Shown here: piece by piece, positions 17,274 through 60,512 of the stretch
How the letters are laid out: each line of letters starts with the position of its first letter
Position numbering within the stretch: the first letter of the stretch is position 1
Notes under the pieces: generated by a model
The model's database searches: none
Told to the model about the DNA's origin: nothing
Seen by the model: the letters and a program-made list of their open reading frames with translations, nothing else
Origin: Chloroflexota bacterium
GTDB taxonomy: Bacteria > Chloroflexota > Anaerolineae > Anaerolineales > Anaerolineaceae
DNA: 64,000 nt
NCBI GenBank assembly: GCA_012514645.1
Contig: JAAYZW010000107.1
Coordinates: 4,599 to 68,598, forward strand
Reading direction: 5' to 3'
Program-made: the position numbers and the translations under genes

Positions 17274-18986
17274 TTATTGGGAAGCTCCTGTAAATAAATT
17301 CAAACGAACCCACAAGACACCTTTTTGGTCCAGTAATACTGGCTTCTTGCCGGCGAGAGCTTGCAGATAGATAACGCCTGGACCATTACGCCAGTCTACA
17401 GTCCTTTCCAAAACGACGTTAGTGCCCCTGAATTCTTCGTCTTCTTGTAATAAGCTCTCGCTGCGACTCATAACGATGCTGACATCATCATGGTTTCGTG
17501 CGATTCCGAAATCGCGGAAGTGCCACGCATAACCGTCGGGCAGATTTTGTAGAGCAAAATCACCTGCTTGTTGAAGGCTTCTTCCGCTCAATTCAAAATC
17601 GCGAATGAGCATTTCAATATCGTTATTCGGGAGGACCAGGTAATTATCAAGGTATTCGAGTGAGGCAATTTGTTGATCTGCCTTCAGGCTTCGGAAACTC
17701 TTTCCAAGGGTGATGATTGCCAGGAAAACAAGCAAAGTCACCAGAAAAACGCGGGAGGTGTCAGTCGTGGACCAGCTAAATCGCACAAGCCACCAGGCAG
17801 TAATCAGCAAAACAATTCCAGCAATAATCATCAGGAAAACATTCCAAAACTGGGGAGAGCCAACTGGTTGATCGATGAGCCGGCTGATATTCAACTTGAT
17901 AAAGATCAGAATTGTTATTACAAAAACCGCCAAAAGTGGTTTTAGCCCCCATGGTTTCAAATCTTCCAGTTCAAGTTGAGCCAACCAAAAGGCACCGCCA
18001 ATCCAGGAGATCAAGACCGGGATGAGCGTCAGCTCAAAACTTTCCCGGGATAACACCATGCACAAAATCATTGTGATTATGATAGAAGCCCCGCCAAAGT
18101 TATAAAAGCTGGCACCCCGCGATTTCCGTATCCTGATATAACCAAGAATGAAAAGCGTAAAAGGTAAGTAGCTATGCGCAATTTGTAGGTAAATCGTATG
18201 GTAAAGTGCTTTATCAAAAGAATGGGTGAAATTGTCGATAGACCCAATCACGCTGCTTGCCAACCCGCTCAACCCGGAAGGATTCAGGAAAAAACTGGTC
18301 AGCGTTAGCACGGCAAAGGCGATGAAACCAAGCAGCACTTCCAACCAATTGATCTTTTGGTCAGTGTGGGTAACCAATCGGAATTCGTCCAGCAAGTCCG
18401 GTCGCACGGTTTTAATCAGCAGCCACGTGACCACCAGCACAATCAGGATGCTCCAGAAAACCTGCCCTGAAAGGAAAGCGAGGGCGGCACAGATGCCAGC
18501 CAAAATCGGTTTGTTCTTTCTCAGGCAGGTGAAGGACCATAACACCCCGGCGATTGCAAAGATTCCCCCATTGACTGCCCTTGAGAAAAGCAGATATGTG
18601 GGGTCGAGTGCCAGGGCAATACTGAGAATCAAAGCCGTCCTGGTGCCTAATTTTTCTTTCCAGAGCGCCGGCAACAATATCAATGATGCACCAATCAAAG
18701 CTGGAAAAAGCCGAGCAAGGAAGTTATTGGCACCCAATAAGAAAAACATCACACCGGTTAAGCCGGTGTAAGCCGGTACAGCGCTGGTCGTAGTGCTCAT
18801 TCCGCGGCTTATCTGCAGCGCTTGGTTGATCAGTTCCAGTTCGTTTTGAGCGTAAACCATACCTTCCAGAAAACCCAGACGCAAAAACAACCCCACCAGG
18901 AAAGCAAGTGAAAACCATACTGAAGCGTTCTTAAACCAGGGTTTGGTGTTTGTTTCTACTAAGGGTTCTGTTTGTGCAGTCATCAT
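17274..18986 (-). CDS. Multi-pass membrane protein, GT-C-like (putative polyprenyl-phosphate-dependent glycosyltransferase)
   Basis: 570 aa with about 12 or more hydrophobic segments. The pattern LLGANNFLARLFPALIGASLILLPALWKEKLG...DPTYLLFSR resembles the ArnT/PMT_2 core. The start overlaps the upstream stop (ATGA). Confidence 0.45.
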   Translation of the reverse strand: MMTAQTEPLVETNTKPWFKNASVWFSLAFLVGLFLRLGFLEGMVYAQNELELINQALQISRGMSTTTSAVPAYTGLTGVMFFLLGANNFLARLFPALIGASLILLPALWKEKLGTRTALILSIALALDPTYLLFSRAVNGGIFAIAGVLWSFTCLRKNKPILAGICAALAFLSGQVFWSILIVLVVTWLLIKTVRPDLLDEFRLVTHTDQKINWLEVLLGFIAFAVLTLTSFFLNPSGLSGLASSVIGSIDNFTHSFDKALYHTIYLQIAHSYLPFTLFILGYIRIRKSRGASFYNFGGASIIITMILCMVLSRESFELTLIPVLISWIGGAFWLAQLELEDLKPWGLKPLLAVFVITILIFIKLNISRLIDQPVGSPQFWNVFLMIIAGIVLLITAWWLVRFSWSTTDTSRVFLVTLLVFLAIITLGKSFRSLKADQQIASLEYLDNYLVLPNNDIEMLIRDFELSGRSLQQAGDFALQNLPDGYAWHFRDFGIARNHDDVSIVMSRSESLLQEDEEFRGTNVVLERTVDWRNGPGVIYLQALAGKKPVLLDQKGVLWVRLNLFTGASQ

Positions 18987-21622
18987 CTTGGATCTTTCAC
19001 TTCGTAGATTTCCACATTGGTTGAATTTAACAATTTATACATGTGATCTTCGAACTTTGTCTCGTCAAGCTGATAAGTTTGCCGCTCGAGCTCGCTGACC
19101 ACAATATAACGAATATTATACAGGTCAATGATCGCCTGCGCCTGGTTCCAGTCCGAGGTGCTGTAGAGTATTCGCAGATCCGTCTGCCGGTTGCCAATTT
19201 CGTCATAACCTCCGCGCCATTGAGCTTCGTGCCCAACCCAGCCCAACACAGTGGGCATGCCTGAAAAGGTCGAAACAATATTGTAGGTCGTATAGCTGCC
19301 TCCGGTGTCGGCGACTGCCTCAGCCATCACGCCTGTTTCAGCCTCGGCAAGCCAGGCTGCGGCTCGCATTTCGTCTGCGTTATACGTGTAAAAATCTTGT
19401 TTACCATCCAAACTATAGCCATCACGCGGTTGAAAACTTTCAGTTTTATTCCATATTTCGATAATTGGGAAAACCAATCCGGCCGACAGCGAAGCCAGGC
19501 TGAGAATTGCCAGTGCGAGTTTGGCGTTTTTTCGTACGATCGCGGTTCCCAGCCAAGCTAAAAACAACACTGGTATCGCCAGGACCAGAAAATCAAGCCA
19601 ATTGCTGCCAAATTCAGGTTGGAGTGTTTCGGTTTGCTGAACAATCGAAAAGGAGAATACTATCAATCCGATCAGGATGATGATGGTCGCGAATGGGCGG
19701 ATTTTACCTGGGTCAGCGTCAATCAGGAATTTCGCGATGAAGTAAGCGCCGGCGAGCGACCACAAAATCCAGGCTTGAAAATAAAACTTGAAGATTGTAT
19801 TCATCCGCGTGCCAAATTGGTCACGTAAGTAAACAAATTCCGGTACGATCACGAGCAGTGCGCCCAACAACACCAGCATAAGCACAAAAGCCTTGGTCTC
19901 CAACTTAAATCCAGTGATTAGCTCAGGGCTCTCGTCGATCGGCTGAGCGTTTTCTATCCGTACTTTTCTGATAAAGTAGTCAGAAGCCAGCAAAACCATA
20001 ACGAACATGGTGATAAAGGTTCCCGGGGATTTTAAGCGCTCAAGCATGGAGCGGAGCAGCAGATCAGTGTTATCAAGCGCACCTTGAAGATTGTTCAGTA
20101 ATCCGCTCAGATTTCCGATCCTGCCGGCTATCCAGCCCAGCCCCCACCCTGCCAAAAACAACAGCGCGACCAACGCGGCAGTTAACAACCACGAATACAG
20201 CGACGGCAGCCGTCGGGATTTTATCTGTTGATAAATAAGCCATGCCATTATTGGCACAAGTAATGGTCCAAACATGATCCAAAAATAGCTTCCGCGCGTA
20301 AAGAACGCCAGGCTTGGCAGCAAACCACCAGCCTGCGATGAGAAACTGAGATAGAACGGCAGATAAGCGAGGATGCTCAATATCCCGCCAATTAGGCTAT
20401 ACGAAATAACCTGGAAAACTCGCTTCTTGTTCCAGCCTTCCATGCTGGACTGTCTCCAAACCAAAGCAGCCACGATCAAAAGCAAATAAAAAGGAAAGTC
20501 CCAGGTATTGAGAAATGCAATCCCACCCAGGGTGACCACCGCCAACAAGGCGCTTTTCCAGTCAATCGCGATGTTCCACCGAAAGAAGCGCATGCTCCCT
20601 TCCCAGCCTCCTCTTAAGGCGTTCAACGCCAGGGAGATTGCCAGCAAAACAAATGGCATCCCCAGCAGGTGTGGGTGTATATCTGCCAATAAATAAGTGA
20701 AAAAAGGAAATTCATCGATAATTTCAATCGCAGAGCCGTTCAAACGAAAATCCTGAACCACCCGGCTGGCTTGCCACCATGACCAGCCTCCCCGGTTTGG
20801 GAACCACGAAACCCGGATGGGTTCGCTTGTCAACGATGGAATCTGCAGGTTTTGCCAGGTCTCAGACGGCAGCAACCCCCGCGCATGCAAAACGTCCAGC
20901 AGACCAAACCAGTTCGACACAATCAGGATTAGCAGTGGTGCCAGCAATGCCAGGCTATATACCCGACCGCCGACTGGTTCTTGCGTGTCTTGATTTGTTT
21001 TTTCCTTTGCCAGCAAGTCCCAGGTCAACCCATAAGCGCCCAACGCCGTCAAGCCAAACCACGATGCAGATACCAGGTTATAGCCAACCGAGGATGCCAC
21101 ACCGCTCACCCTGATAAGCAAAGCCGAAATCAGATAGCCAAAGTAATAATAGGAAATCGAATAGCCAGAGAGCCAGGGGTCGTTTGGCGGCATGGTCGGC
21201 GATTTAAGGATCGCATTGATAAACGCCATTTCCATGAACTTTTCAGTATGAATAATATCGGGATTCGCAGCCCGGACTATTGCCCAGAAGGCGAAAGCGA
21301 TCACAAAGACCAATTCTGTCACGATGATCAGTTTGCGGTTGCTTTCAAACCACTGCCGCAACTGCGAGAAGCCGATCTTCCAGGCAACAAACAAGTTAAA
21401 AGCCAATAAGATTAGCAGAATCGACAGCGCGCCAGAAAGATCGTTGCTCAGCAGCCCCAGCGTGGTCAGCCACCAGTAAACAAATCCCCACAAGAGCAGC
21501 CCAACCACCTTGGTAAGGTAAACGCCCCTGGAACGCAATTTCCGGAAAAGCAGCCAGGTGATCGGCAGATGGATCAGTCCCAAGACCTCAAGCAATAAAA
21601 ACCATTTTAAAAAGTCGATCAT
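18983..21622 (-). CDS. DUF2298 / 'Chlor_Arch_YYY' domain membrane protein
   Basis: HTEKFMEMAFINAILKSPTMPPNDPWLSGYSISYYYFGY carries the YYYxG hallmark. The protein is highly hydrophobic throughout. I prefer the ATG at 21622 (MIDFLKW), 1 nt after the upstream TAA, which gives 879 aa. Confidence 0.7.
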   Translation of the reverse strand: MIDFLKWFLLLEVLGLIHLPITWLLFRKLRSRGVYLTKVVGLLLWGFVYWWLTTLGLLSNDLSGALSILLILLAFNLFVAWKIGFSQLRQWFESNRKLIIVTELVFVIAFAFWAIVRAANPDIIHTEKFMEMAFINAILKSPTMPPNDPWLSGYSISYYYFGYLISALLIRVSGVASSVGYNLVSASWFGLTALGAYGLTWDLLAKEKTNQDTQEPVGGRVYSLALLAPLLILIVSNWFGLLDVLHARGLLPSETWQNLQIPSLTSEPIRVSWFPNRGGWSWWQASRVVQDFRLNGSAIEIIDEFPFFTYLLADIHPHLLGMPFVLLAISLALNALRGGWEGSMRFFRWNIAIDWKSALLAVVTLGGIAFLNTWDFPFYLLLIVAALVWRQSSMEGWNKKRVFQVISYSLIGGILSILAYLPFYLSFSSQAGGLLPSLAFFTRGSYFWIMFGPLLVPIMAWLIYQQIKSRRLPSLYSWLLTAALVALLFLAGWGLGWIAGRIGNLSGLLNNLQGALDNTDLLLRSMLERLKSPGTFITMFVMVLLASDYFIRKVRIENAQPIDESPELITGFKLETKAFVLMLVLLGALLVIVPEFVYLRDQFGTRMNTIFKFYFQAWILWSLAGAYFIAKFLIDADPGKIRPFATIIILIGLIVFSFSIVQQTETLQPEFGSNWLDFLVLAIPVLFLAWLGTAIVRKNAKLALAILSLASLSAGLVFPIIEIWNKTESFQPRDGYSLDGKQDFYTYNADEMRAAAWLAEAETGVMAEAVADTGGSYTTYNIVSTFSGMPTVLGWVGHEAQWRGGYDEIGNRQTDLRILYSTSDWNQAQAIIDLYNIRYIVVSELERQTYQLDETKFEDHMYKLLNSTNVEIYEVKDPR

Positions 21623-21623
21623 A

Positions 21624-24600
21624 TTATCTGACCTTGTATATGTTGGTCTCATCCTGGCTGTAGACCAGGTCCCACAGCTGACCGTCATAAGTTTCAAACT
21701 TCGCCAACGCTTCAGGCGGATAAAAAGCCATTTCTTGCTGACCCACAATTACATAACCGACCCGGTATTTCTGCAGGTACTCCTCAATAAACTCAGGTTC
21801 CATGCTCATGTAAAACGCGTTGACTTCATCAACCCGTTCCTGGACGGCGTTGTTGCGTAAAATCGCCCGCTGTTGACGCTGGTGGTAATTCCACCCCACC
21901 ACCGCTGGCAGACCGGTGTAGACAGTGTATCGGTTGCCCCAATAATACTCGTATGCCTGCGCTTCGAGGATTACCGGCGAGCCTTCCACATTCTCCTGCA
22001 TCCACTGGATTGCACGATAATCCTGCCCCAGATCCATGGTCACGCCGTTGACGAAATACTCGGAGGTCTCCATGTATTTCATCCCATCCAACGTATGCGC
22101 TGCTGCCGGGTCCATGCGGTCGGTGATTTTGTCTTTGGTTGCCAAAGCCGGGAAAAGCAGCGCTGAAAAAAGTAACACAACAAAAAAGACCTGAAACACA
22201 ATTTGCCAGCGCGTACGCCACTTGGGAAGATCACGCCACAAAATAACCAGCACCAGTCCCAGCGGCAAGGTCAACAACATCCAGGCTTGGTGATAGAGCT
22301 TAAAAACCACATTCATGCGCCCAATATCACCGACCAGGTAGACCAATTCGACCACCAGCGTAAGCACCAGCCCGGTGCCGATCATAAAATAAGCCAGCCT
22401 TCGGGCATCGTCATCGCTAATCACCATCAGGAACAGAGCCAGAACCCCCAAGGGTAATGCCACCAGGGCTATGGTCACCTTGAGTAGCAGCAAGATCAAA
22501 AAGGCTACAACGATCAATCCTGCCAAGGCGATGAGCCATTTCCGGTGTTTTTCATAAACCTTCAGCTGAGACAAGCGGGTGGATGCCATCCAGCGGTAGG
22601 TCTCCCAAAGCAGCCAACTGGTAATCAGGAACAAAATCAGACCCCAATGCAGGAAGTAAGCTGCGAGCGGTGTTCTCGGTCCATTCCAGAATCCAACCGA
22701 GCCATAACCGGAGAAAAAATTGCTATTAAACTGGTGATAGAAAACACGACTAAGCAGCAGCACCGCCACCACCCCAGCAAGTGGATAAATCCACCGACGT
22801 GTCCATTCAGGCAAAAAGCGCCAGCGCGCTCCAGGTAAATAGCGCCAACCAATATAGATTATGACGACCATTGCCAATGCGGTGAAGGTCAGGTAATCCC
22901 AGGTGTTGGTCGGTTGCAAAGCACCCAAAACGACCGCCCCAATCACAAGGATTGGAAGAAAGCCATCCAAAATTCGGAGTGTCAGTTTTCCGTCTTTTTT
23001 CCTTAACATAACCAGTGAAAGACACCAGCTGACCGCCGCCATGACGATAGGCATGGCGATCAGGTGGGCATGAAAATCGGCATAGAGGAAGGTAAAGAAT
23101 GGGAATTCCGTGATTGGTTCTCCAGGGATCATCCGGCTGGGGTTCCAATACCAGTTTCCTGAAGCGATTGGCAGGCGTTCGCCCTGGGCAGTCATGGCAA
23201 TGCCCCTGACCCACCAAACCAGTTTTTGGCTCAGGGTGGCACCTTCTGTGCTGACTCCTGCAGCCCCGAGCGCTGCTAAACCGTCTGCAATAACCTTGAT
23301 TTCACCTAAATTGCCGACAAAAGCAAGCAGCAAAGCACTGCCAACACCTGCCCAAAAAGCCGTCCCAAACAATTTTTCGTCTTCGTTTTTACCAACCGCT
23401 TTTGCCAGGTTCCAGCCGATGCTGAAGGCACCAATCACCAACATGGCATACCAGAGCGAGATAAGGATGTTATACGAAACTGCCGGCACCACACCGAGCA
23501 GTTTTATCGGCAAAGCGACCAGAACCTGCCCGTAATAGTAATAATTAATATATCCGCCGGCATACCAAGGGTCATATGCTGGAAAAACGCTGCTCTTGAT
23601 CACAGCATTGAGAAAGCTGAAATCCATCGGCTTTTCGCCGCCACGCCAGGGGTGCCATAAGTCCGGGTTTTGGTAGCGAATCCATAGGAAAAAGGCAAAC
23701 GCTACCAAAAATACTGCTTCTTCGACAAGGAACTGTTTCCATAATCGTTTGACATCTTCGCTCAAGCCTTTTCTGGTAAGCCAGGTGATCAACACCGATA
23801 AAATCAAAATGCCTGCCAAAACGATCCAAAGCAGGGTTCTGGTTACTGGCACTTTAATTGAGCCAAGGTTGAAGGTAACCAGCGCAAACAGCAGTAGTCC
23901 GATGATGCGGGCAAAGGCATATCCCTTATCTTTCAAGCCGGGCAGTGCCAGCCGAACGATCGGGAATACAGCAAGCCCCAACAGCCAAAATAGCAGGTAA
24001 AAAGCCAGCACCGCCAGCCAGGTTTGCCGGTTCAATAACGAGTCGCGGTCAAACAGCTCTGACCACGTGCCGCCTTCCTGCTGTATCTGCAATTCTTCTT
24101 CAGTAAGCATCAGGTTGTTTTCCGCTGCCCCTGCCACATACGAGTCGGCTTGCCTGGGAGTCAGGAAAACCGCGCTGTCTATGTCGACTGAATTCAACAA
24201 AGCCCAAACTGCTTCACTATCGAACGACTCGTTCTTGCGGAAGATCAGCACTTTCGGGTGATCGTAGACCGAAAAAGCCTCTTCAGCATATTGATCGTTA
24301 AATTCGATGCTGCCAAGCGTTGGGTATGAGGTAAACGTTTTGACCAGATCAAAACCGAGCGTTCCAGATTGTCCGGATTCGGCTTCGTAGTAGCAAACCA
24401 GGGTGTCCTGTTCTTCCGGGCAACCCAGCAACTGGCGGTAGAAAAAGGTGCTCAGCGGATAGCGCTCTGGCACGCGGGGGATGGTGCCAAACTGTCTGTT
24501 CGAGCTCATGATAATAGTGTCAGCCTGGGTCAAGACTGAGTAAAACCGCTGCAGCTTGCTGGCATCATCGGGCCAATACATTTCGAAATTCAGGTCACCT

Positions 24601-26861
24601 CGGTAAATACCTGCATTATCCTGGTAGGCTGTGAAACCCGGGCGAGACAGCGGCAGTCCATCATCCCAACTGCTTTCCAGTGCGATTCCTGGCGTATTGA
24701 CCATTATCTGACCCTCGCCCTCTGCCAGTTCTATGATCAAATCGAGTTCAATCGGCTGGTCGATTGTCGGCGGTTCCTGCAGCTGGAAAACGACCTTTTC
24801 TCCCTTCGCTCCATCACCAAGAAAATCGCCTTCAGCCACCGCAGTTCGGGCTATCGTGCCTTCTGCCGTATCGGCAAGCAGAGTCAGTTTTAACTGTTTT
24901 GTTTCCTGTTGTTGATCCATATCCAGCACCGATGGCAGTTCCACCCGCTTGATCGTGCCGATAGAATGGACATGAACTGTCATCTCGTACGCATGCCTTG
25001 GGAAGATGGTTTCATTGATCTTCGGCAAAACATCCTGTCGGACCAAACCATCATCGTAATAAAAAGTGAAGACAGGCACGCCGCTGAGAAAGGCTTGCGA
25101 ATCGTCAGTTAACAGTGTCAGTTCAAATTGGTAAAAATCCCCATCGAGCAAATAAATGGCTGGGTTAAATTGGAAGTCCAAAACCGTTTGCACATTTCCT
25201 TCAGCGTTCTGGGGGTTTTGCCCAACCAACGATTCTTCGGTCAGATCCTGACCACTGCTGACATCAATAACCCTCAGTTGATATTGCACATTCGCGGGGT
25301 CATCGGAGACCGATTGAACCACAGGATAGCTAAGGTCAGTCAAAAAGCCATCCGCCTTGGCTTCGTAAAGCAGCGTCAGCTTCTCTCCGCTGCTCAAGGT
25401 GTTCACCGCCCGATATTGCACCGGGAAATTCAGCTCTTCTCCAACTGTCTCAATTACCAGATTGATTGGACCTTCCAGGTTTTCGTAGATCCAGTCAGTC
25501 GCCTGCACCCGAGTCACCGGACGCGTGTAAATTCGGCTAAACGCGAACGCCCAAACCGCCGTACACGTCAGCACCAAAACCGTAAGAACAACTCCAATTG
25601 TCCGGAACGTTTTGCTGGATATTGTAAATTTTCGAATTGTAGAACCAGTTTTAGCGCTAAGCAACCAATCCAGCCCCCAGGCAGCGAAAATCGCCATGAA
25701 CGGATAGAGCAATAACAGGTAACGCATGGAAGACACCCACGCCAGCCCCTGCCAGGCAAAGTAAACCAGGCTCCAGGTCCATAGCGGAAGATGCAGATAA
25801 GCTTTGCGTTTAAAAATTTTGATTGCCATTCCAAACCACGAAAGCACTGCCATGATCCCCCAGGGCAGCCCTACCCCCCAGAATAGCATGTTATAAAGCG
25901 AAAATGTTGCCGGCCGCCTGGTCCATTGCAGTGCCGGCGGGAAATCGACCTCACCGGTGGCTTGCGCTTGCAGAGACTTAAGCCCATTCCACCAATCCTG
26001 GTTGATCCCCATGTTCAAGAAACCAGGACCGGCAAAGGCATAAGGTTGAAGTAGACGAAAAGTGAGAATGCTGACAACAGCTGCAGCAATTACCAAAACA
26101 ATTACTTTTATGAAGTCATAGCGCTCTTCGTGATCCTTACGACCCAGATAACGCACCAATTCTACCAGCGGCAGCAACAGCGCCAGGGAGACAGCGTTGA
26201 TCTTGGATGCTGTCGCCATCCCCAACCCCAGCCCAAACAGGAGGTAGCGCCACCCGTATCTCCAACCCTGTTCGAGCCAGCCGCCTTCGTCTGTGTCGTT
26301 ATAAGGGCTTTTCAGAATCAGCACCGCAGCCAAAACTGTCAGCATCCCAAACGTGTTTGTAAAGGTATCCACGGTCAAAAAATGCGCCTGCTGAATTGGC
26401 AAAACCGCGAAAGCGTAAAGCGCTGCTGCGATCAGCCCTGCGCGCTCATTGTAAAGCTTGTAGGCGATCAGGAATACAAGAATGATCGTCAGAAAATCAG
26501 CAGAAGCCGAAAGCTGCCTGCCAACAATAGTAATTGGGTCATATCCAATCTGACCGACCCATTCTCCAACATAGCGAATGATAAAAAGCGGAAAAGTGCC
26601 GTAAACAAAAAAGGTAAAGCCATGGTTGTTTGGGTTTAGCGCAGAAGTTTGCGTGTCGAAGTATTCGCCCAGGCTGCCAACCGGCTGCATACTGTTGAGC
26701 ACCATCGAAAGGAAACGCTCATCAGGATGTAAATGAAAGCCTTCATCCCAAGCGAGGTTCAAATAACGCAGGTATCCTCCTGCGACCAAAACCACTGCCA
26801 GCAAAAAGACTGTGACCAAGGCACGGATTATGGAATGGTTTCGCTCGTTGACCGTTTGCAT
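21624..26861 (-). CDS. Giant fusion membrane protein: N-terminal GT-C-like module, ~500-aa extracytoplasmic region and C-terminal DUF2298/YYY module
   Basis: 1745 aa. The N-terminus has HLHPDERF and NNHGFTFFVYG within multiple TM helices. Residues ~455-950 are hydrophilic. The C-terminal half has EKPMDFSFLNAVIKSSVFPAYDPWYAGGYINYYYYG, which aligns with the neighbouring YYY protein. Confidence 0.7.
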   Translation of the reverse strand: MQTVNERNHSIIRALVTVFLLAVVLVAGGYLRYLNLAWDEGFHLHPDERFLSMVLNSMQPVGSLGEYFDTQTSALNPNNHGFTFFVYGTFPLFIIRYVGEWVGQIGYDPITIVGRQLSASADFLTIILVFLIAYKLYNERAGLIAAALYAFAVLPIQQAHFLTVDTFTNTFGMLTVLAAVLILKSPYNDTDEGGWLEQGWRYGWRYLLFGLGLGMATASKINAVSLALLLPLVELVRYLGRKDHEERYDFIKVIVLVIAAAVVSILTFRLLQPYAFAGPGFLNMGINQDWWNGLKSLQAQATGEVDFPPALQWTRRPATFSLYNMLFWGVGLPWGIMAVLSWFGMAIKIFKRKAYLHLPLWTWSLVYFAWQGLAWVSSMRYLLLLYPFMAIFAAWGLDWLLSAKTGSTIRKFTISSKTFRTIGVVLTVLVLTCTAVWAFAFSRIYTRPVTRVQATDWIYENLEGPINLVIETVGEELNFPVQYRAVNTLSSGEKLTLLYEAKADGFLTDLSYPVVQSVSDDPANVQYQLRVIDVSSGQDLTEESLVGQNPQNAEGNVQTVLDFQFNPAIYLLDGDFYQFELTLLTDDSQAFLSGVPVFTFYYDDGLVRQDVLPKINETIFPRHAYEMTVHVHSIGTIKRVELPSVLDMDQQQETKQLKLTLLADTAEGTIARTAVAEGDFLGDGAKGEKVVFQLQEPPTIDQPIELDLIIELAEGEGQIMVNTPGIALESSWDDGLPLSRPGFTAYQDNAGIYRGDLNFEMYWPDDASKLQRFYSVLTQADTIIMSSNRQFGTIPRVPERYPLSTFFYRQLLGCPEEQDTLVCYYEAESGQSGTLGFDLVKTFTSYPTLGSIEFNDQYAEEAFSVYDHPKVLIFRKNESFDSEAVWALLNSVDIDSAVFLTPRQADSYVAGAAENNLMLTEEELQIQQEGGTWSELFDRDSLLNRQTWLAVLAFYLLFWLLGLAVFPIVRLALPGLKDKGYAFARIIGLLLFALVTFNLGSIKVPVTRTLLWIVLAGILILSVLITWLTRKGLSEDVKRLWKQFLVEEAVFLVAFAFFLWIRYQNPDLWHPWRGGEKPMDFSFLNAVIKSSVFPAYDPWYAGGYINYYYYGQVLVALPIKLLGVVPAVSYNILISLWYAMLVIGAFSIGWNLAKAVGKNEDEKLFGTAFWAGVGSALLLAFVGNLGEIKVIADGLAALGAAGVSTEGATLSQKLVWWVRGIAMTAQGERLPIASGNWYWNPSRMIPGEPITEFPFFTFLYADFHAHLIAMPIVMAAVSWCLSLVMLRKKDGKLTLRILDGFLPILVIGAVVLGALQPTNTWDYLTFTALAMVVIIYIGWRYLPGARWRFLPEWTRRWIYPLAGVVAVLLLSRVFYHQFNSNFFSGYGSVGFWNGPRTPLAAYFLHWGLILFLITSWLLWETYRWMASTRLSQLKVYEKHRKWLIALAGLIVVAFLILLLLKVTIALVALPLGVLALFLMVISDDDARRLAYFMIGTGLVLTLVVELVYLVGDIGRMNVVFKLYHQAWMLLTLPLGLVLVILWRDLPKWRTRWQIVFQVFFVVLLFSALLFPALATKDKITDRMDPAAAHTLDGMKYMETSEYFVNGVTMDLGQDYRAIQWMQENVEGSPVILEAQAYEYYWGNRYTVYTGLPAVVGWNYHQRQQRAILRNNAVQERVDEVNAFYMSMEPEFIEEYLQKYRVGYVIVGQQEMAFYPPEALAKFETYDGQLWDLVYSQDETNIYKVR

Positions 26862-26864
26862 AAA

Positions 26865-28919
26865 CTATTGGCTCGCTAAAAAGATCAAAAAGTCTTTGCC
26901 GGGATGTACGCTTTGATAGAGCGAGGTTACTCCGGCTGGATAGAGAGATTGTAACTGACCAAGGCTCTCACTGTCGCTGATGTGCAAAAGAAAGATTTTC
27001 GCGGTCTGAAGTTCGGCTGTGCTCCCCAGATCCTGCGGAAGAATCGAAAAATTGACATGCGGTTCACCCATCGTGATTGCCACCGCCCGGGCATCAACCC
27101 AGTGTGGATATCCGACTATGTAAGCCTGGCTTGTGCCGCCCTGTCCGGTGTCGTAGTTTTGGATCACACTGGACATCTCGCTGCTGTTCCAGGCGGAAGC
27201 CTGGTATTCGCGCGGGTAAGTTGTGTTAATCAGGCTGAAATTTCGGAGGATAATCAGGATCGCAAAAATCCCAATGAATAGTGCCTGTTTGACCCATCGA
27301 TTTTCCGAAACTAAAAGTCGGTCTGCCGCAAAAGCTAAGCCCCTTCCAGCGATCAACATGACTGGAACCACAGAAATGATCGCACGGCTTAGGGAAGGGT
27401 TTTCCATGGGTTGGGCGAGCGATAATACCGAGGGCAGCAAACCAACGAAAAACAAAAGAACCAGTGAAATGCTTTGGTCCGGTTTTGTGCGCATATCGTG
27501 AAAAAGGATAACGCTCAGACCAAATAAAAAGAAGGCGCCAGTGACCCAATCGACCGCCGGTCGGTTTGCAATACCTTCCACCCAACTGCTGTGATTGTTC
27601 CAGTTAACCATTCCGACAGCCGCGATCAAATTACGAAAGAAGGTACTGGCAGCACTGTCAGCATTGGCAACCTGATTGACCAGCGGCGAAATCCAGCTCT
27701 CCGCGTTGGAGGCGATGATAAAAACCAATGGCAGCATTGCCACCAGCCCAACCAATAGACTTATGGCTACGCGCAACATCAAGGCTGTTCCGGGGTTATC
27801 GCGCTTGTTGCGGACCGAATAAGCAATCGTTATCAACAGGTTTGCCAACAACAGAACAAAGAAAATTTTATTGGTCAGCAAGCCCAAACCTGTCAATACC
27901 GAAGCAATCAACAAGGCATTAAGGTCGTTTTCCTGCAGTGATTTCACCAGGTAATAAAAAGCCGGCAGCAAAATCGGCAGCACCATTCCAAACCCCAATA
28001 TAGCCCGCTGCTGTATGATTGACCAGAAAGCAACGCCCAGCAATAAGGCAGTAATATAACCGGTCATTTCATCAAACAATCGCCTACCGAGTTTGAACAT
28101 ATACAAGACCGCCGTCAATCCACCCAGACCATATGCCAGTTTTAATCCAGCAAAGCTCATTGGGCTGCTGGTGAATTGGTTAATTAGAGCCGCCCAGTAA
28201 TAACCAAGTGGCTCACTGACCACATTTCGTGGGAACCAAAGCGCGCTCCCGCCCTGCAGGATCCCATCGACTGTGTAATATGTCTCCACCTGCGCGCTGA
28301 TCATCTCTGGCGGCACTTGCTCCAGCCGACCTAATTGGAAGAGGAGTACGACAATAATTAATGCCAGGTATGCCGCCGTTCTTCCACGGTTGGCAACCAA
28401 ATTTTGCAAGATCACCTTGAAGTCCGGCTTTGATGATTTTTTGGGCTGAAGAAAGGCAGCAACGATTGTGGCAATACTGGATATCCACAACAAACCGGCA
28501 ATGAAACCGACCTGCTCCTGCTGGTAGAGCTGGCTGGCGCCTAACGCCAAAACGAAAGATACGAGCATCCAGCCCAGGCGCACTTTAACTACTCCGACGG
28601 TCTCAGCGCCCAGGGACGATTCTGTCGTCTCGAGAGATGGTGCCCTCTCACGCCAGAAGGCAAAACCAGCCAGCAAGAGACCAACCGCAAGCAGCAAGAC
28701 CCCAACCCCACCAAGCGCTTCACGCACAAATTCGATCAAAAACTGACCGACAAGCAAACTGGCAAGCGCTGACAGCAGCAATTTGTTTGGCCTAGGCTTT
28801 TTTGACACTGCGACAGCCGGGCTAACCGGTTCGTTTTCCGGGGCAGGTTTGCTAAAATAGCCGCGGAGAGCTTCGAGTACTGTTGGGTCGTGCTCCGGAA
28901 CGGGGAAGTTTTTACTCAT
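26865..28919 (-). CDS. Multi-pass membrane protein, GT-C-like (ArnT/PMT_2-like)
   Basis: 684 aa. EPLGYYWAALINQF...FAGLKLAYGLGGLTAVLYMFKLGRRLF follows the pattern of family-39-like glycosyltransferase cores. It has many TM segments and a soluble C-terminal ~130 aa. Confidence 0.5.
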   Translation of the reverse strand: MSKNFPVPEHDPTVLEALRGYFSKPAPENEPVSPAVAVSKKPRPNKLLLSALASLLVGQFLIEFVREALGGVGVLLLAVGLLLAGFAFWRERAPSLETTESSLGAETVGVVKVRLGWMLVSFVLALGASQLYQQEQVGFIAGLLWISSIATIVAAFLQPKKSSKPDFKVILQNLVANRGRTAAYLALIIVVLLFQLGRLEQVPPEMISAQVETYYTVDGILQGGSALWFPRNVVSEPLGYYWAALINQFTSSPMSFAGLKLAYGLGGLTAVLYMFKLGRRLFDEMTGYITALLLGVAFWSIIQQRAILGFGMVLPILLPAFYYLVKSLQENDLNALLIASVLTGLGLLTNKIFFVLLLANLLITIAYSVRNKRDNPGTALMLRVAISLLVGLVAMLPLVFIIASNAESWISPLVNQVANADSAASTFFRNLIAAVGMVNWNNHSSWVEGIANRPAVDWVTGAFFLFGLSVILFHDMRTKPDQSISLVLLFFVGLLPSVLSLAQPMENPSLSRAIISVVPVMLIAGRGLAFAADRLLVSENRWVKQALFIGIFAILIILRNFSLINTTYPREYQASAWNSSEMSSVIQNYDTGQGGTSQAYIVGYPHWVDARAVAITMGEPHVNFSILPQDLGSTAELQTAKIFLLHISDSESLGQLQSLYPAGVTSLYQSVHPGKDFLIFLASQ

Positions 28920-28936: not shown

Positions 28937-29752
28937 TTATGCCGCCAAAGTCCTCTCGGCGTACAGGTAGCCGAGGTCGGCATGGACCAGGTTATGGTAA
29001 TGCTTGACCGTGTAACCGAGATCCTCAAACTGGCTGGTTAACCGTTCGTGATTACACACGTCATCACAATCATGGTACTCCATGATGATTCGTTGAATTT
29101 TTAAGAAAAGCTGTGGATCCTGGTCCATTAGAATCTGAAACTCGGCACCTTCACAATCGAGCTTCATCAGGTCGATATTGGTGCCAACTTTCTCCTCGAT
29201 CACTTGCTTTAGCGTGATCACCGGGATGGTAGTTTCTTTTGCCGCCTGTAATTCTGCTGAGTTAGCCTCTCCGCTGACTGCCTGCAAGGGTTCGTTGTTC
29301 AGGAAATGCAGCGGAATTTCGCCTGCCTCTTTCCAAACGCCGAGATTATAAGTCTGAACTTTGTCCAGGTTATTGGCACGCAAGTTTTGGCGCAAAATAT
29401 TGATCGACCCTGGATTTGGTTCAAATGCGTGTACGATACCATTTTCCAGGTGCAAAGCCGCTTCGATGGTGAATTCGCCAATCGCCGCGCCAATGTCGAC
29501 AACCACCCAATCGGGCTGCACCTGGGTGCCCAAGCGGGTGTAATATCGGTCGATCAGAGCTTCCTTGACCGACCACGCTTCCATTTTGCTGCCGATGCCG
29601 ATTTTGAGATCGTTTCGTCGTAAATGGAGCCATTTAACCCCCAGAAACGGTTTTCCTAAAAAGATTTCAAAAAGGTCCTTCCAGTTTTTTACGCCATAAA
29701 GCAATTCAAATATCGACCATAAATAATACGCATATTTTCGAATAAATCTCAC
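28937..29752 (-). CDS. FkbM-family methyltransferase
   Basis: VVDIGAAIGEFTIEAA, HAFEPNP and KLDCEGAEFQIL match the FkbM domain signature. Confidence 0.75.
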   Translation of the reverse strand: MRFIRKYAYYLWSIFELLYGVKNWKDLFEIFLGKPFLGVKWLHLRRNDLKIGIGSKMEAWSVKEALIDRYYTRLGTQVQPDWVVVDIGAAIGEFTIEAALHLENGIVHAFEPNPGSINILRQNLRANNLDKVQTYNLGVWKEAGEIPLHFLNNEPLQAVSGEANSAELQAAKETTIPVITLKQVIEEKVGTNIDLMKLDCEGAEFQILMDQDPQLFLKIQRIIMEYHDCDDVCNHERLTSQFEDLGYTVKHYHNLVHADLGYLYAERTLAA

Positions 29753-30555
29753 ACACGCCTCCTGGCGATATAAAAAGTACAGGTTCCCTCGTTATCGCGC
29801 GAATTCGCAACCAGCCGCGCGATTGAATCGAAATGAATAAATGGGTTCTTGCGGTTTTTGAAAAGCACCCATTTCCCGAACAATTTTTTCCAAAGCAGGT
29901 TGGGCAATCCAGCAGCGTGACCGCGCTCCAGTTTGTGCAGTGCTTCTACCGGGAAGTAATGCCAGTATTCCACCTGGTCGAATCCTGCCTGTTCAAGGCG
30001 CTTGAGCCATACCTCTGGGGGATCGAGATTCTTGTGCCGGGAGATCATATTAAAAAATCGCGAATAGAGCAGTGCCAGACGTTTCAAGCATATCCTCGCG
30101 AAAACCTCCATGCCCCACAAATCGGTTACGAAACGGCGATTAGGAACAGCAAAAAAGAATTTTCCGCCCGGTTTCAACACACGCGCGGCTTCGTTTAAAA
30201 CCGGTTGGACATCCTTAATGTGTTCGAGTACCGAGTTGCTGATCGCGCTGCCGCAGCTTGCTGTTTCAACCGGTACGCTTGCTCCCTCTGCCTGGACCAG
30301 CAGCGGGTAGACATTCCAGGTTTTCGCCTCCAAAAGTGGCTGCCACCAGGGGTCAACGCCAATCACTGCCTGACCCTCAAACAGTGCCCAGGCAAAATGC
30401 CCATCGCCGGCACCCAGATCATAAATCGGTTCTTCCAAAACCTGGGTCTCATAGAAACTCTGTTCCACCGCCCGCAGCATTCCACGGAAATAAGGCAAAT
30501 GGAAGAGCTGTTGTTCGCAAATGCGTTCAATGTCTTGTTTGGTTAGTTCAGTCAT
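29749..30555 (-). CDS. Class I SAM-dependent methyltransferase
   Basis: IYDLGAGDGHF (motif I), ISNSVLEHI and LKPGGKFFFAVPN. It overlaps the downstream gene by 4 nt. Confidence 0.75.
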   Translation of the reverse strand: MTELTKQDIERICEQQLFHLPYFRGMLRAVEQSFYETQVLEEPIYDLGAGDGHFAWALFEGQAVIGVDPWWQPLLEAKTWNVYPLLVQAEGASVPVETASCGSAISNSVLEHIKDVQPVLNEAARVLKPGGKFFFAVPNRRFVTDLWGMEVFARICLKRLALLYSRFFNMISRHKNLDPPEVWLKRLEQAGFDQVEYWHYFPVEALHKLERGHAAGLPNLLWKKLFGKWVLFKNRKNPFIHFDSIARLVANSRDNEGTCTFYIARRRV

Positions 30556-31702
30556 TATTCACCAGTAGAAAAAATGATTCTTCATAATGTCTGGCAACGG
30601 CGTTTTGAGAAAATTTTTCCAGAAACTCAGTCGGAACAAACCGAGCTTTCTCGCCCTGATTGAAGATCTCAAGAATCGCCTTCGAGATTGCTCCCGGATT
30701 TCTCAATGGCACAATTTTGCCAAGTCCGGTATTCTTAACCGGCTGCCTGACCCCCGGCAAATCAGAAGCAACCACCGGTGTGCCCTGGGTCATCGCTTCA
30801 ATTTGCACGATTCCATACGATTCGGTGGCATTCAAACTTGAAAACACCAGCACATCAATGGCAGCAAAAAAGGTCTCAAAATCTTCGTCGCTCAGGAAAC
30901 CAAGCGAGTGCCATTTCTCCCCAAAGGGTTGAATGAATTTCTCGACCTGATCCCGGTAAGCCCGTTCGCCAACAACACCATCCCAGGCACCGGCGTGCAC
31001 CACCCTGGCTTCGGGACACACCCCCAGAACAGTCGGCAGTGCTATTGCCAGGTATTCATAGCCTTTTTCAGAAGCCACTCTGCCTGCCAGCCCGATCACT
31101 TTATCGGTTTTTTGGATGCCATATTTTTTCCTGAAGGCTTCCACCCTGTCAGCAGACACGCTTTTGACTTTCACAGGAGTGGGCACCGCGATTACTTTCT
31201 CAAGATATTTACGCAAAATCGGTGAGTGTTCAGCGTAATCCAGCGAATTTTGCACAACAAGGTTGGCATCTTTGACCACTTGTTGACCAATAGTTGAGGT
31301 AACCATTCCTGCAAGGCGGTTTAGTAGTGAGCCGGTCATCACTAGGTCACAGTGGTAGGTCACCAACACGGGTTTGCCAAATCCCTGCGCGATTTTGCTC
31401 AGAAGCAAGCTCTCAAACTGTGGCAGGTGCAAATTGACCACGTCAGCCCAGGCGATCCACTGCCGGGCAATTTTATGCAACCGTGGCATCAGCACTCCCT
31501 TGGAGAGCCTGGTCGTCACAGGCACCCGCACGATCCTAAATCCGTCCTTAGTTTCCAGGCTTGGCAGCAATTTTTCGTATTGTGACGTCAGAACGACTAC
31601 TTCGTGCCCTCGCTCAGCCAACCCCTCTGCCAGCCGCAAGGCGTAGACCGAAAGACCGGAGCTATAGGGGTAAAAGTAGGTCGATGAGATTAGAACTCTC
31701 AT
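30548..31702 (-). CDS. Glycosyltransferase family 4 (GT-B, group 1)
   Basis: MRVLISSTYFYPYSSGLSVYALRLAEGLAERGHEVVVLTS N-terminus and ESYGIVQIEAMTQGTPVVASDLPG C-terminal motif. Confidence 0.8.
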   Translation of the reverse strand: MRVLISSTYFYPYSSGLSVYALRLAEGLAERGHEVVVLTSQYEKLLPSLETKDGFRIVRVPVTTRLSKGVLMPRLHKIARQWIAWADVVNLHLPQFESLLLSKIAQGFGKPVLVTYHCDLVMTGSLLNRLAGMVTSTIGQQVVKDANLVVQNSLDYAEHSPILRKYLEKVIAVPTPVKVKSVSADRVEAFRKKYGIQKTDKVIGLAGRVASEKGYEYLAIALPTVLGVCPEARVVHAGAWDGVVGERAYRDQVEKFIQPFGEKWHSLGFLSDEDFETFFAAIDVLVFSSLNATESYGIVQIEAMTQGTPVVASDLPGVRQPVKNTGLGKIVPLRNPGAISKAILEIFNQGEKARFVPTEFLEKFSQNAVARHYEESFFLLVNND

Positions 31703-32730
31703 GGGAGCTTCTCCTTCTTTTGACGGAATTGACTGGCTTTGCCAAGCAAGGCTTCCAGGCTCTGCCCAGATATGACCAACGCGATCACTCCCAGGATGGC
31801 TGGGATGATGATTTGAACGCTGTGAACCACCAGCGCCATGGCAAGTGCGGGAGCTTTGTCAATACCCACCAACGCGTAGGATCCGACCGCGCCGGCTTCG
31901 TAAACACCCAGCCCACCAGGAGCGGCAGGCAGCGCGTTCACAAAAGCACTGGCAGGAATCACAAGCATTGGCCACCACCATTGCGATTGTGGCAGGATGG
32001 TTTGCTGTAAAACCAGGTATTCGAGCATCGAAAACGACCAACTCACAGCTAACAGTACAAAAACCAGCACGAAGCGCTTCGGTTTGACAAAAAACTGAAA
32101 CCCACTCAATAGTTGATCGAAAGCTGGAAGCGCTCTGTCATGCAAAAATCCCGATCGTTTGAAACGAACCTGCAGCCACTCGACAACTTTGGATCGATTT
32201 TGTGACGCGTAGAAAATGAAAGCGAGTGAAAGCAATAAAACCAGCATACCGACCCAGGCGATTCGCCTGAGTGCATCGCTTTGGATAAATAGTAGTAACG
32301 ACACAATTAAGAAAGAAAACCCAACCAACAGGTCCAGCAACCGCTCCGCTACGATTGAAGCCATTGCTTCCATGTAACCAACATTGCCTTCACTTCTTTC
32401 GGTCAGAAAAGCGCCGCGACCAAACTCACCTAACCTAAGAGGGATGATTGTGTTGAGCAAATAGCCCAGGTTCATCCCCCAGAAAGTGTCCAGGAAACTG
32501 ATTTTCCCGCCCAGAATCATCCAGCAAACTAAGCTTCTGAGAAACAGCCCCGCAGAAAAAAATATGATGATTAAGCCGATCGACGCTATTGACAGCTGTT
32601 TGAAAGCGTCAATGAGCGATTGGAAATCCAGCTGCCGTAAAACCAGCCAGATTGCCAGTACGCTGATTAGCAAGGGTAATCCTATTTTGAGGATCCGGTT
32701 TAGCCCGGGTTTCGCCTCTGGTTGGGACAT
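31699..32730 (-). CDS. Flippase-like membrane protein (LPG_synthase_TM / UPF0104 family)
   Basis: 343 aa with about 8 TM segments. LLNTIIPLRLGEFGRGAFL is typical of UPF0104. The start overlaps the lepA stop (TAATG). Confidence 0.6.
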   Translation of the reverse strand: MSQPEAKPGLNRILKIGLPLLISVLAIWLVLRQLDFQSLIDAFKQLSIASIGLIIIFFSAGLFLRSLVCWMILGGKISFLDTFWGMNLGYLLNTIIPLRLGEFGRGAFLTERSEGNVGYMEAMASIVAERLLDLLVGFSFLIVSLLLFIQSDALRRIAWVGMLVLLLSLAFIFYASQNRSKVVEWLQVRFKRSGFLHDRALPAFDQLLSGFQFFVKPKRFVLVFVLLAVSWSFSMLEYLVLQQTILPQSQWWWPMLVIPASAFVNALPAAPGGLGVYEAGAVGSYALVGIDKAPALAMALVVHSVQIIIPAILGVIALVISGQSLEALLGKASQFRQKKEKLP

Positions 32731-34715: not shown

Positions 34716-35588
34716 ATGCTTAAAGTGTGGATCGAAACCCTGCGTCCACGACAGTGGACCAAAAACGCGGTTATTTTTGCCGCTTTGATCTTTGATGGTC
34801 AGTTTCTGCAACCTATGCCTTTTCTACGTGTCGCAGCCGCCGCGCTCTTGTTTTGCCTGGTATCAGGCGTTACCTATACCATAAACGATCTGCTCGACAT
34901 TGAAGCCGACAAACTGCACCCAACCAAGCGTAACCGTCCAATCGCCTCGGGCAGGCTTGGCAAAAATCAGGCGATCATCTGGGTGGTCTTACTATCAACC
35001 ATCTCCCTGGTTGGTGGTTACCTGCTTTCCCCCTACCTGGCGCTTATCTACCTCGCTTACAGCATTTTGATGCTGCTTTATTCCAAATGGCTGAAGAAAA
35101 TCATAATTCTCGATGTCATGATCATCGCCTCCGGTTTTTTACTTCGTGTCATGGCAGGGCTGACGGTGATCAACGTTGCTTATTTTTCGCCGTGGCTATT
35201 CGTGCTAACAACCTTACTGGCGATGTACCTGGCGTTCGGCAAACGCCTGGCAGAATTGAAGCTGTTGGAAGAAGACGCTGGCACCCACCGCAAATCGCTG
35301 GAAGAATACACAATCCCGCTCTTAAACCAATATATACTGATTGTGCTGGGTGCCATCCTGATCACCTACACACTCTACACCTTTTCAGCCCGCCCAGAAC
35401 AACCCAGTTATGCGATGATGTTGACCATCCCTTTTGTGGTTTATGGCATTTTCCGCTACCTTTACCTGATTCAAAGTGGTTTGATGACTTCCTCACCGGA
35501 AGAAGTACTGATAAAAGACCGCCCTTTGCAGGTGGCAATTTTGCTGTGGGGGTTGGCAGTCGGAATTATCATCTATATCATGTTTTGA
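34716..35588 (+). CDS. UbiA-family prenyltransferase, decaprenyl-phosphate phosphoribosyltransferase (DPPR synthase)-like
   Basis: 290 aa with about 8-9 TM segments. NDLLDIEADKLHPTKRNRPIASG matches my recollection of the Rv3806c-type motif (NDxxDxxxD...HPTKRxRPxAxG) rather than the UbiA/MenA-type RTxxRP motif. Confidence 0.65.
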   Translation: MLKVWIETLRPRQWTKNAVIFAALIFDGQFLQPMPFLRVAAAALLFCLVSGVTYTINDLLDIEADKLHPTKRNRPIASGRLGKNQAIIWVVLLSTISLVGGYLLSPYLALIYLAYSILMLLYSKWLKKIIILDVMIIASGFLLRVMAGLTVINVAYFSPWLFVLTTLLAMYLAFGKRLAELKLLEEDAGTHRKSLEEYTIPLLNQYILIVLGAILITYTLYTFSARPEQPSYAMMLTIPFVVYGIFRYLYLIQSGLMTSSPEEVLIKDRPLQVAILLWGLAVGIIIYIMF

Positions 35589-35595
35589 GGTCGAT

Positions 35596-36546: not shown

Positions 36547-36549
36547 TCT

Positions 36550-56413: not shown

Positions 56414-56462
56414 CTCAAAAATTATACCCGCAATTAATCACTGATTGAGTATAATAACCCGC

Positions 56463-57440: not shown

Positions 57441-57446
57441 GTTTCC

Positions 57447-57468
57447 GGGACGGTATGGTAGCCGTCCC
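57447..57468. terminator. Hairpin between the convergent GT2 gene and the 57488 gene
   Basis: GGGACGG/CCGTCCC forms a 7-bp stem with an 8-nt loop. There is no clear U-tract on either strand. Confidence 0.35.
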
Positions 57469-57487
57469 TTGCGGATATCCCCTGTTT

Positions 57488-59446: not shown

Positions 59447-59447
59447 G

Positions 59448-60419: not shown

Positions 60420-60512
60420 AAACTTGAATTTACACCCGTTCCTCTCAATTGTGATCCTTCATGCCTATATCATAGCTGAAAACCAGGGATTCGCACGAAG
60501 GAGTTGGAGAGC

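Follow-up and report, generated by a model that had tools for sequence, protein, structure and literature searches.

We analysed a 1745-residue membrane protein encoded in a 64,000-nucleotide window of DNA from a Chloroflexota bacterium of the family Anaerolineaceae (GenBank assembly GCA_012514645.1, contig JAAYZW010000107.1, positions 4,599 to 68,598); nucleotide positions given without a locus name are those of this window. The protein joins, in a single polypeptide, a module from a distinct PMT-like GT-C family (hereafter the N-module) to a YYY module, also named DUF2298, with an extracytoplasmic region in between. Its architecture, the folds of its parts, their conservation, the synteny of the locus and the variants of the fusion are established by the results below. 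The interpretation that we favour, with moderate confidence, is that the fusion protein is a two-headed polytopic GT-C glycosyltransferase that uses polyprenyl-phosphate-linked sugars and is encoded in a conserved envelope-glycan operon.

Architecture of the fusion protein

A preliminary description, made from the DNA letters and translated open reading frames (ORFs), had divided the protein into a membrane module, a soluble region and a second membrane module. Hydropathy bears out this layout, with hydrophobic stretches at residues 7-446 and 946-1580, a hydrophilic stretch at 447-945 between them and a hydrophilic tail of 166 residues (Table 1). The motifs quoted in that description could all be located, namely HLHPDERF (43-50), NNHGF (78-82), EKPMD (1076-1080), DPW (1097-1099) and YYYYG (1107-1111). 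The region 447-945 is acidic, containing 80 Asp/Glu residues versus 31 Lys/Arg, and both sets of conserved loops, together with both soluble domains, are predicted by topology to lie outside the cell.

The fusion is genuine and common

One possibility is that two adjacent genes have been merged into this long ORF through faulty assembly or annotation. We scanned one genome per species for related loci and retrieved 26, all from Anaerolineaceae, Brevefilum, Anaerolineales or other Chloroflexota metagenome-assembled genomes. About 18 of the 26 independent loci encode the fusion as one ORF, with products of 1650-1880 residues, while in the remaining loci it is truncated at contig ends or frameshifted. 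The orthologues are 38-72% identical, and the linker between the two halves is conserved. An exhaustive database search with residues 1-950 returned 1159 clusters (50% identity) at E ≤ 1e-30, whose full-length members are mostly 1570-1900 residues long. Hundreds of database proteins from Chloroflexota have the fused PMT_2+DUF2298 architecture, under the names "DUF2298 domain-containing protein" or "YYY domain-containing protein."

The artefact explanation draws on three relatives (P0087, P0089 and P0092) that are listed as two genes each. However, these apparent splits are homopolymer frameshifts or in-frame stops in error-prone assemblies, across which homology is unbroken. P0092 (locus L027) has an in-frame stop with homology in the same frame beyond it, P0087 (L028) has multiple frameshifts, and P0089 (L029) is frameshifted at an A-run, past which its homology carries on without a gap. 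All three breaks come from one long-read project, and the splits are assembly errors or pseudogenes. Since the fusion is a single ORF in about 18 loci, the breaks are explained and the linker is conserved, we reject the artefact, which is highly improbable. The fusion is thus not the product of a sequencing frameshift or stop, nor is it rare, and it is common in Anaerolineaceae. As a side observation, the orthologous fusion of L027 (10001-15322, on a 5.4-Mb contig) lies outside the lepA synteny described below, in another gene neighbourhood, and its single in-frame stop may be a sequencing error, may mark a pseudogene or may be read through in translation.

We found no clean split form of the N-module family. 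The only separate gene for the N-module and its outer domain that we encountered is in P0020 (two contigs), where it encodes 928 residues and is followed by a DUF952 gene and then by a single YYY gene. In L030, DUF952 lies between the fusion and a second, stand-alone YYY gene (YYY2), and the lone YYY gene of P0020 is therefore probably YYY2. The P0020 form thus looks like loss of the fused YYY module rather than a clean split. The DUF952 gene itself encodes 112-113 residues and lies between the fusion, or the separate gene, and YYY2 (L030, 14937-15275; P0020 contigs).

Larger fusions also exist. P0200 and P0256 (about 2440 residues) consist of the N-module, a short outer domain, a YYY module and a second YYY module, while P0246 (2315 residues) has an extra PMT_2 module ahead of the N-module, a short outer domain and YYY. 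The covalent linkage had been put forward as evidence that the two modules work as one machine. This is probably correct, since the variety of covalent combinations among these neighbouring modules, in independent fusions of the types N+YYY+YYY and PMT_2+N+YYY, supports their joint action.

The N-module is a GT-C module of the PMT/PMT_2 type

An AlphaFold2 model of residues 1-950 (predicted local distance difference test score, pLDDT, of 88.7; predicted template modelling score, pTM, of 0.88) shows about 11 membrane helices. When this model was compared with known structures using Foldseek, 35 matches were obtained at E ≤ 1e-3, nearly all of them GT-C enzymes. The structural neighbours of the N-module are AglB (2e-8), Pmt4 (4e-7), ArnT (1e-5), yeast and human STT3, EmbB, ALG9/12 and PglB, with Pmt1/2 also among them. 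At the profile level, 21 of 29 family members match PMT_2 (best E 1.3e-12) and 7 of 29 match PMT (PF02366; best 6.7e-13). Alignment of the N-module family with that of the neighbouring PMT_2 protein using hhalign gave a probability of 93% (E 4e-7). None of the 29 relatives matches the STT3 Pfam family, and the archaeo_STT3 profile reaches only E 1.2e-3 with the N-module (17 bits versus a cut-off of 450). Sequence searches of the PDB produced no match, either with the protein alone or with a family profile. Together, the Foldseek, PMT_2 and hhalign results back the proposal that the first 450 or so residues are GT-C-like with a PMT/ArnT-like DE loop, and on these models and profiles we assign the N-module to the GT-C enzymes of PMT/PMT_2 type.

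The HLHPDERF motif lies directly after transmembrane helix 1, in the first extracytoplasmic loop. Each of its residues H45, P46, D47, E48, R49 and F50 is kept in at least 90% of 77 sequences and shows no variation in a subset of 29, so that the DE dipeptide pointed out in the preliminary description proves to be near-invariant. The catalytic loop-1 DE of PMTs sits at the corresponding position after the first helix, and by analogy D47 and E48 are a putative catalytic pair. Three basic residues, K220, R269 and R316, show the same degree of conservation (at least 90% in the 77 relatives, invariant in the 29).

The N-module is not the Agl23 partner of YYY

The preliminary description had likened the N-module to a small family with a DE dipeptide and an HGP tripeptide, said to co-occur with YYY proteins. 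We take this family to be TIGR03663, now "flippase activity-associated protein Agl23," whose TIGRFAM description mentions an invariant DE and HGP near the N-terminus as well as co-occurrence with YYY. This identification fails. TIGR03663 has no match to residues 1-460 at E ≤ 10, and the tripeptide in the N-module is HGF (family consensus GHGF) rather than HGP, the DE being present as D47 and E48. A BLASTP comparison with a 570-residue Agl23-like protein encoded two genes downstream of the fusion, in the same operon, gave nothing, and hhalign gave a probability of 0.9-1%. Therefore, the fusion does not unite YYY with Agl23. Of the claim that two families usually found as neighbours have been fused, the YYY part stands, while the Agl23-like partner is a separate gene. 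Members extended at the N-terminus are reportedly already noted as a class in the TIGRFAM description of TIGR03662, the profile of the YYY family.

The 570-residue neighbour belongs to the PMT_2 superfamily and is a distant relative of Agl23/TIGR03663, and its presence fits the reported co-occurrence of YYY and TIGR03663. It scores 42.7 bits with TIGR03663 over residues 76-244, well under the cut-off of 126.25, and its family aligns with that of the PMT_2 neighbour with an hhalign probability of 89%. Its synteny is kept in all complete loci. In 15 orthologues, only E49 (of the DE), R92 and R136 are conserved among the expected motif residues, and there is no HGP; the protein may be a non-catalytic GT-C relative. 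A homologue search started from it returned only 20 close relatives and no bridge to bona fide Agl23. An identical copy is present on a JGI metagenome contig (P0266). For Agl23 of Haloarcula hispanica, flipping of lipid-linked glycans has been reported in vitro (PMC11182771).

The middle region has a variable and a conserved part

Residues 447-945 had been described as extracytoplasmic and β-rich. The AlphaFold2 model agrees, with β-strands across residues 466-728 followed by an α/β domain at 767-945, and the region can be placed outside the cytoplasm because of an invariant Cys pair and the helix count. The β part (462-728) is poorly conserved, and the triple fusions P0200, P0256 and P0246 lack it. 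Foldseek found weak matches to jelly-roll/β-sandwich proteins, and the families DUF4082 and Big_3_2 (Ig-like) are each matched there by single relatives. The β part is likely a variable, glycan-binding insertion of the carbohydrate-binding type, comparable to the carbohydrate-binding modules (CBMs) on EmbC, AftD and a GT136 enzyme (PMC11127046).

The second part, residues 729-945, is kept in all longer fusions. Residues E729, W732, D733, D734, C814 and C823 do not vary among 77 sequences, and YDHPK (866-870) is at least 90% conserved in these and invariant in 29. Two of the invariant residues are the cysteines, and the α/β domain is probably stabilised by a disulfide. No family match and no PDB sequence match was found for this domain.

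The YYY module is probably a very divergent GT-C enzyme

The assignment of the C-terminal 790 or so residues to YYY is secure. Over their full length, the 798 C-terminal residues can be aligned with the neighbouring gene product, YYY2 (BLASTP E 2e-45, 25% identity), and residues 948-1745 span positions 2-727 of the 727-position TIGR03662 profile with 508.7 bits versus a cut-off of 300.25. The match to PF10060 likewise exceeds the curated cut-off (374.2 bits versus 27.8, E 1.5e-111). In 47 sequences, YYY2 included, the loop after the fourth helix has invariant N1065, D1067, H1070, E1076, D1097-P-W1099, Y1107-1109 and G1111, so that the YYYxG motif is present as YYYYG. A second outer segment is marked by E1252, F1253, P1254, D1262, H1264 and H1266, all invariant in the same 47 sequences.

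The AlphaFold2 model of the YYY module has a pLDDT of 88.2 and a pTM of 0.92. The best Foldseek neighbour of its membrane part is AftA (E 1.8e-3), followed by ALG12 (2.6e-2), ArnT (7.9e-2) and Pmt2 (0.34), with probabilities of 0.92-1.0. The C-terminal 165 residues match 3vu0, the C-terminal domain of AfAglB-S2, with a Foldseek probability of 1.0 and target-normalised TM-scores of 0.52-0.55; with a sequence profile of this domain, 3vu0 is among the top 10 PDB entries at a non-significant E of 0.14. High-probability structural neighbours of the YYY module are thus only GT-C enzymes and the AglB C-terminal domain. We conclude that YYY probably belongs, as a very divergent member, to the GT-C enzymes and that its outer domain is like that of oligosaccharyltransferases (OSTs); we regard this as the weakest link of our argument.

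When the two halves of the fusion were compared with each other using hhalign, no sequence-level homology was found between the N-module and the YYY membrane module or between their outer domains (probabilities of 12-22% and 0.2%). One short motif common to both, A..W[IM]..N[IV].G, reached a probability of only 21%. Two conserved elements each follow an "A..W[IM]..N..G + β-strand" element. One is ESSWDDG (729-735, with invariant W732, D733 and D734; 24657-24671, minus strand) in the outer domain of the N-module, and the other is the invariant G1656-W1657-x-x-H1660 (21882-21896, minus strand) in the C-terminal domain of YYY. Their setting may resemble that of the WWDYG motif in STT3/AglB.

The fusion lies in a conserved operon between lepA and cmk

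The fusion gene belongs to a row of ten genes on the minus strand, separated by overlaps or by gaps of 0-17 nucleotides. Their order is lepA, a LPG_synthase_TM/TIGR00374 flippase-like gene, GT4, Methyltransf_11, an FkbM methyltransferase, PMT_2, the fusion, YYY2, the Agl23-like gene and cmk. The gene order is kept across complete related loci from Anaerolineaceae, Brevefilum and Anaerolineales, with YYY2 missing from the Brevefilum loci. The first codon of the listed YYY2 ORF (18983-21748, 921 residues) is a TTG that lies within the fusion gene, but translation is likely to start at the ATG at 21622. This ATG is one base past the stop codon of the fusion, which implies translational coupling.

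Divergent from lepA lies a set of genes (34716-37341, plus strand) that begins with a UbiA-family homologue of decaprenyl-phosphate phosphoribosyltransferase (DPPRS) and continues with mevalonate kinase and with an isopentenyl-phosphate kinase of archaeal type. The set recurs in 8 related loci, and the DPPRS homologue adjoins the operon in 8 of about 13 related loci with enough flank. It is a candidate synthase for a lipid-linked pentose donor, with a putative link to the fusion. There is a precedent in three-component pentofuranose systems made up of a polyprenyl-phosphate phosphoribosyl synthase (PPPRS), a MATE-family flippase and a GT-C enzyme of family GT136 (PMC11127046).

Table 1. Coordinates of the fusion gene, the parts of its product and the neighbouring genes in the 64,000-nucleotide window
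Feature	Position	Strand	Basis
Whole 1745-residue fusion ORF (N-module, extracytoplasmic region, YYY module)	21624..26861	-	Intact, ATG to stop
N-module, residues 1-446, PMT/PMT_2-like GT-C fold	25524..26861	-	AlphaFold2 model, Foldseek, hhalign, PMT_2 matches of relatives
D47-E48 in HLHPDERF, putative catalytic/acceptor-binding pair of the N-module	26718..26723	-	Conservation, position after transmembrane helix 1
Residues 462-728, variable β-sandwich (CBM-like), extracytoplasmic	24678..25478	-	AlphaFold2 model, poor conservation
Residues 729-945, conserved α/β extracytoplasmic domain and linker	24027..24677	-	Invariant residues, AlphaFold2 model
Residues 946-1580, YYY/DUF2298 membrane module	22122..24026	-	PF10060, TIGR03662
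Residues 1581-1745, C-terminal extracytoplasmic globular domain of YYY module, AglB-like	21627..22121	-	Foldseek
YYY2, stand-alone paralogous YYY/DUF2298 protein, 879 residues	18983..21622	-	TIGR03662 447 bits, PF10060 2e-108
570-residue polytopic protein, distant Agl23/TIGR03663-like, PMT_2 superfamily	17274..18986	-	TIGR03663 E 3.8e-11
684-residue PMT_2 GT-C protein, upstream of the fusion by a 3-nucleotide gap	26865..28919	-	PF13231 30.7 bits, above cut-off; synteny
FkbM methyltransferase, Methyltransf_11, GT4 glycosyltransferase, flippase-like LPG_synthase_TM/TIGR00374 protein	28937..32730	-	Family matches, conserved order
UbiA-family DPPRS homologue	34716..35588	+	NF008977 equivalog 257.9 bits versus cut-off 234

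Some more distant operons carry additional genes. In L030 (4896-5921) and L031 (4855-5883), an NAD-dependent sugar epimerase/dehydratase is found between lepA or the flippase-like gene and GT4, and a PlsC-type acyltransferase follows cmk; both genes are absent from the operon in the window. The window also contains a second cluster of glycosylation type (56445-62432). It includes a GT2 glycosyltransferase (56445-57440, plus strand) and a second LPG_synthase_TM/flippase-like gene (59448-60419, minus strand), the latter flanked by genes for two paralogous polytopic proteins of about 640 residues that are 49% identical (57488-59446 and 60513-62432, both minus strand). This pair has no Pfam match and no similarity to the GT-C, YYY or Agl23-like profiles.

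A proposed mechanism and its alternatives

GT-C enzymes act at the outer face of the cytoplasmic membrane with polyprenyl-phosphate-linked sugar donors. The scheme that follows is inferred as regards the activity of either head, the nature of donor and acceptor and the sequence in which the steps occur. In the cytoplasm, GT4 and the two methyltransferases would build or modify a lipid-linked primer, after which the TIGR00374-type flippase-like protein and/or the Agl23-like protein would move lipid-linked sugars outward. Four GT-C-type modules (the PMT_2 protein, the two heads of the fusion and YYY2) would then extend or branch an envelope glycoconjugate in succession. Head 1 would be formed by residues 1-446, with the DE pair and an outer domain of its own (447-945), and head 2 by residues 946-1745. 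Acting one after the other, both would pass sugars from polyprenyl-phosphate donors on to an acceptor outside the cytoplasm. The covalent link would keep these two consecutive steps together, and the β-sandwich would hold the growing glycan. The adjacent phosphoribosyltransferase homologue may supply the donor, in the form of a polyprenyl-phospho-pentofuranose, for which the mycobacterial DPA/Emb/Aft pathway and the three-component pentofuranose systems are precedents.

Several points weigh against this scheme. The fusion protein itself scores 21.2 bits with PMT_2, under the threshold of 26.1. The YYY module superposes poorly on GT-C enzymes overall (query-normalised TM-scores of 0.23-0.30), its membrane part has neither profile-level similarity to PMT_2-type modules nor a PDB sequence match, and we found no publication on DUF2298/YYY function and no characterised member. 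As for the donor, the operon itself has no polyprenyl-phosphate hexose synthase (GT2). A scan of the window ORFs of at least 180 residues, covering all but a few of these and none that is shorter, revealed no DprE1/E2-type epimerase, no dedicated 5-phosphatase, no HAD/PAP2 phosphatase and no MATE/SMR flippase. The adjacency of the DPPRS homologue is absent from several related loci and may merely reflect shared ancestry, the compared genomes being all of one order.

The same structural evidence could be taken to indicate protein glycosylation, with the PMT-like head O-glycosylating secreted or sheath/S-layer proteins and an OST-like YYY head acting on the same targets. The best structural neighbours of the N-module, AglB/STT3 and Pmt4, are in keeping with this possibility, as are the matches of 7 of the 29 relatives to PMT (PF02366), the likeness of the YYY C-terminal domain to AfAglB-S2 and a possible resemblance of ESSWDDG and GW..H to the WWDYG position of STT3. 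However, the STT3 Pfam family is matched by none of the 29 relatives and archaeo_STT3 only marginally, and the sequence lacks both WWDYG, the motif of the STT3/AglB C-terminal domain, and PMT-type MIR domains. Moreover, the operon has a GT4, methyltransferases and a lipid-flippase-like gene, a set more often associated with the assembly of glycolipids or polysaccharides, and we consider protein glycosylation unlikely. There is another alternative, in which only the PMT-like head is catalytic and YYY is a non-enzymatic translocase or scaffold for the lipid-linked donor or growing polymer. The weak structural similarity and missing sequence-profile link to GT-C modules would be expected in that case, and the three extra N-terminal helices ahead of the conserved loop, as well as the co-occurrence with Agl23, a reported flippase, argue in the same direction. 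Yet the invariant Asp, Glu and His residues of YYY are in outer loops and not in the bilayer, its outer C-terminal domain is OST-like, and the presence of two YYY paralogues per locus, at times fused in tandem, suits successive enzymes better than a channel. A non-catalytic YYY is thus quite unlikely, and we retain the two-headed glycosyltransferase as the favoured interpretation.

A bolder proposal, which we advance only tentatively and consider doubtful, is that DUF2298/YYY is an unrecognised GT-C family and that the operon, with three to four such modules, some covalently joined, together with an Agl23-type flippase and the DPPRS homologue, builds a pentofuranose-containing envelope polymer similar to mycobacterial arabinan.

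Comparison with known systems and implications

Because the fused architecture is abundant in public data under DUF2298/YYY names, and is thus already annotated, the observation itself is not new. The C-terminal 800 residues of the fusion are a full-length member of the TIGR03662/PF10060 family, and nothing sets the protein apart from the catalogued fused ones. To our knowledge, no system has been characterised in which a single polypeptide carries two GT-C-type modules and one of these comes from an uncharacterised family.

With PMT/PMT_2 enzymes (the GT39 PMTs and ArnT of GT83), the N-module has in common the 11-helix GT-C fold and the DE in the first outer loop. It differs from them in its score below the Pfam threshold, in the lack of MIR domains, in its β-sandwich and α/β outer domain and in the second polytopic module attached to it. 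As regards AglB/STT3/PglB, the N-module finds its best structural match in AglB, and the C-terminal domain of YYY is similar to the one in AglB-S2, but the fusion has no STT3 match and no WWDYG, and the sequence similarity is not significant. From Agl23 the system differs in that the N-module is not a member of that family and the 570-residue neighbour has no HGP and keeps only the Glu of the DE.

The mycobacterial arabinan machinery (DPPRS Rv3806c, EmbA/B/C and AftA-D) offers another parallel, since here too a phosphoribosyltransferase equivalog lies beside a row of GT-C-type genes. Emb, AftD and ORF12 have an outer carbohydrate-binding-like β-sandwich on a GT-C enzyme, as in the fusion, and no other structure comes as close to the YYY module as AftA. 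In contrast to the arabinan and three-component pentofuranose systems, the flippase candidates here are of other families (LPG_synthase_TM/TIGR00374) and a pair of GT-C-like modules shares one polypeptide.

The envelope chemistry of Anaerolineae, which are filamentous and abundant in digesters, sediments and wastewater sludge, is poorly known. Since the locus lies between housekeeping genes (lepA and cmk) and has been conserved throughout the family, it probably gives rise to a core component of the envelope. Our analysis corrects the idea that the fusion unites the co-occurring YYY and Agl23 families. It also gives DUF2298/YYY, which in fused form alone accounts for more than 1000 clusters at 50% identity, a concrete proposed role as a second GT-C-type transferase head, and it points to residues and to a possible donor pathway for envelope biogenesis in Chloroflexota. 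If the tentative proposal of an arabinan-like polymer were true, the operon would produce a major, undescribed component of the Chloroflexota cell wall, and the archaeal YYY/Agl23 gene pair would gain a function.

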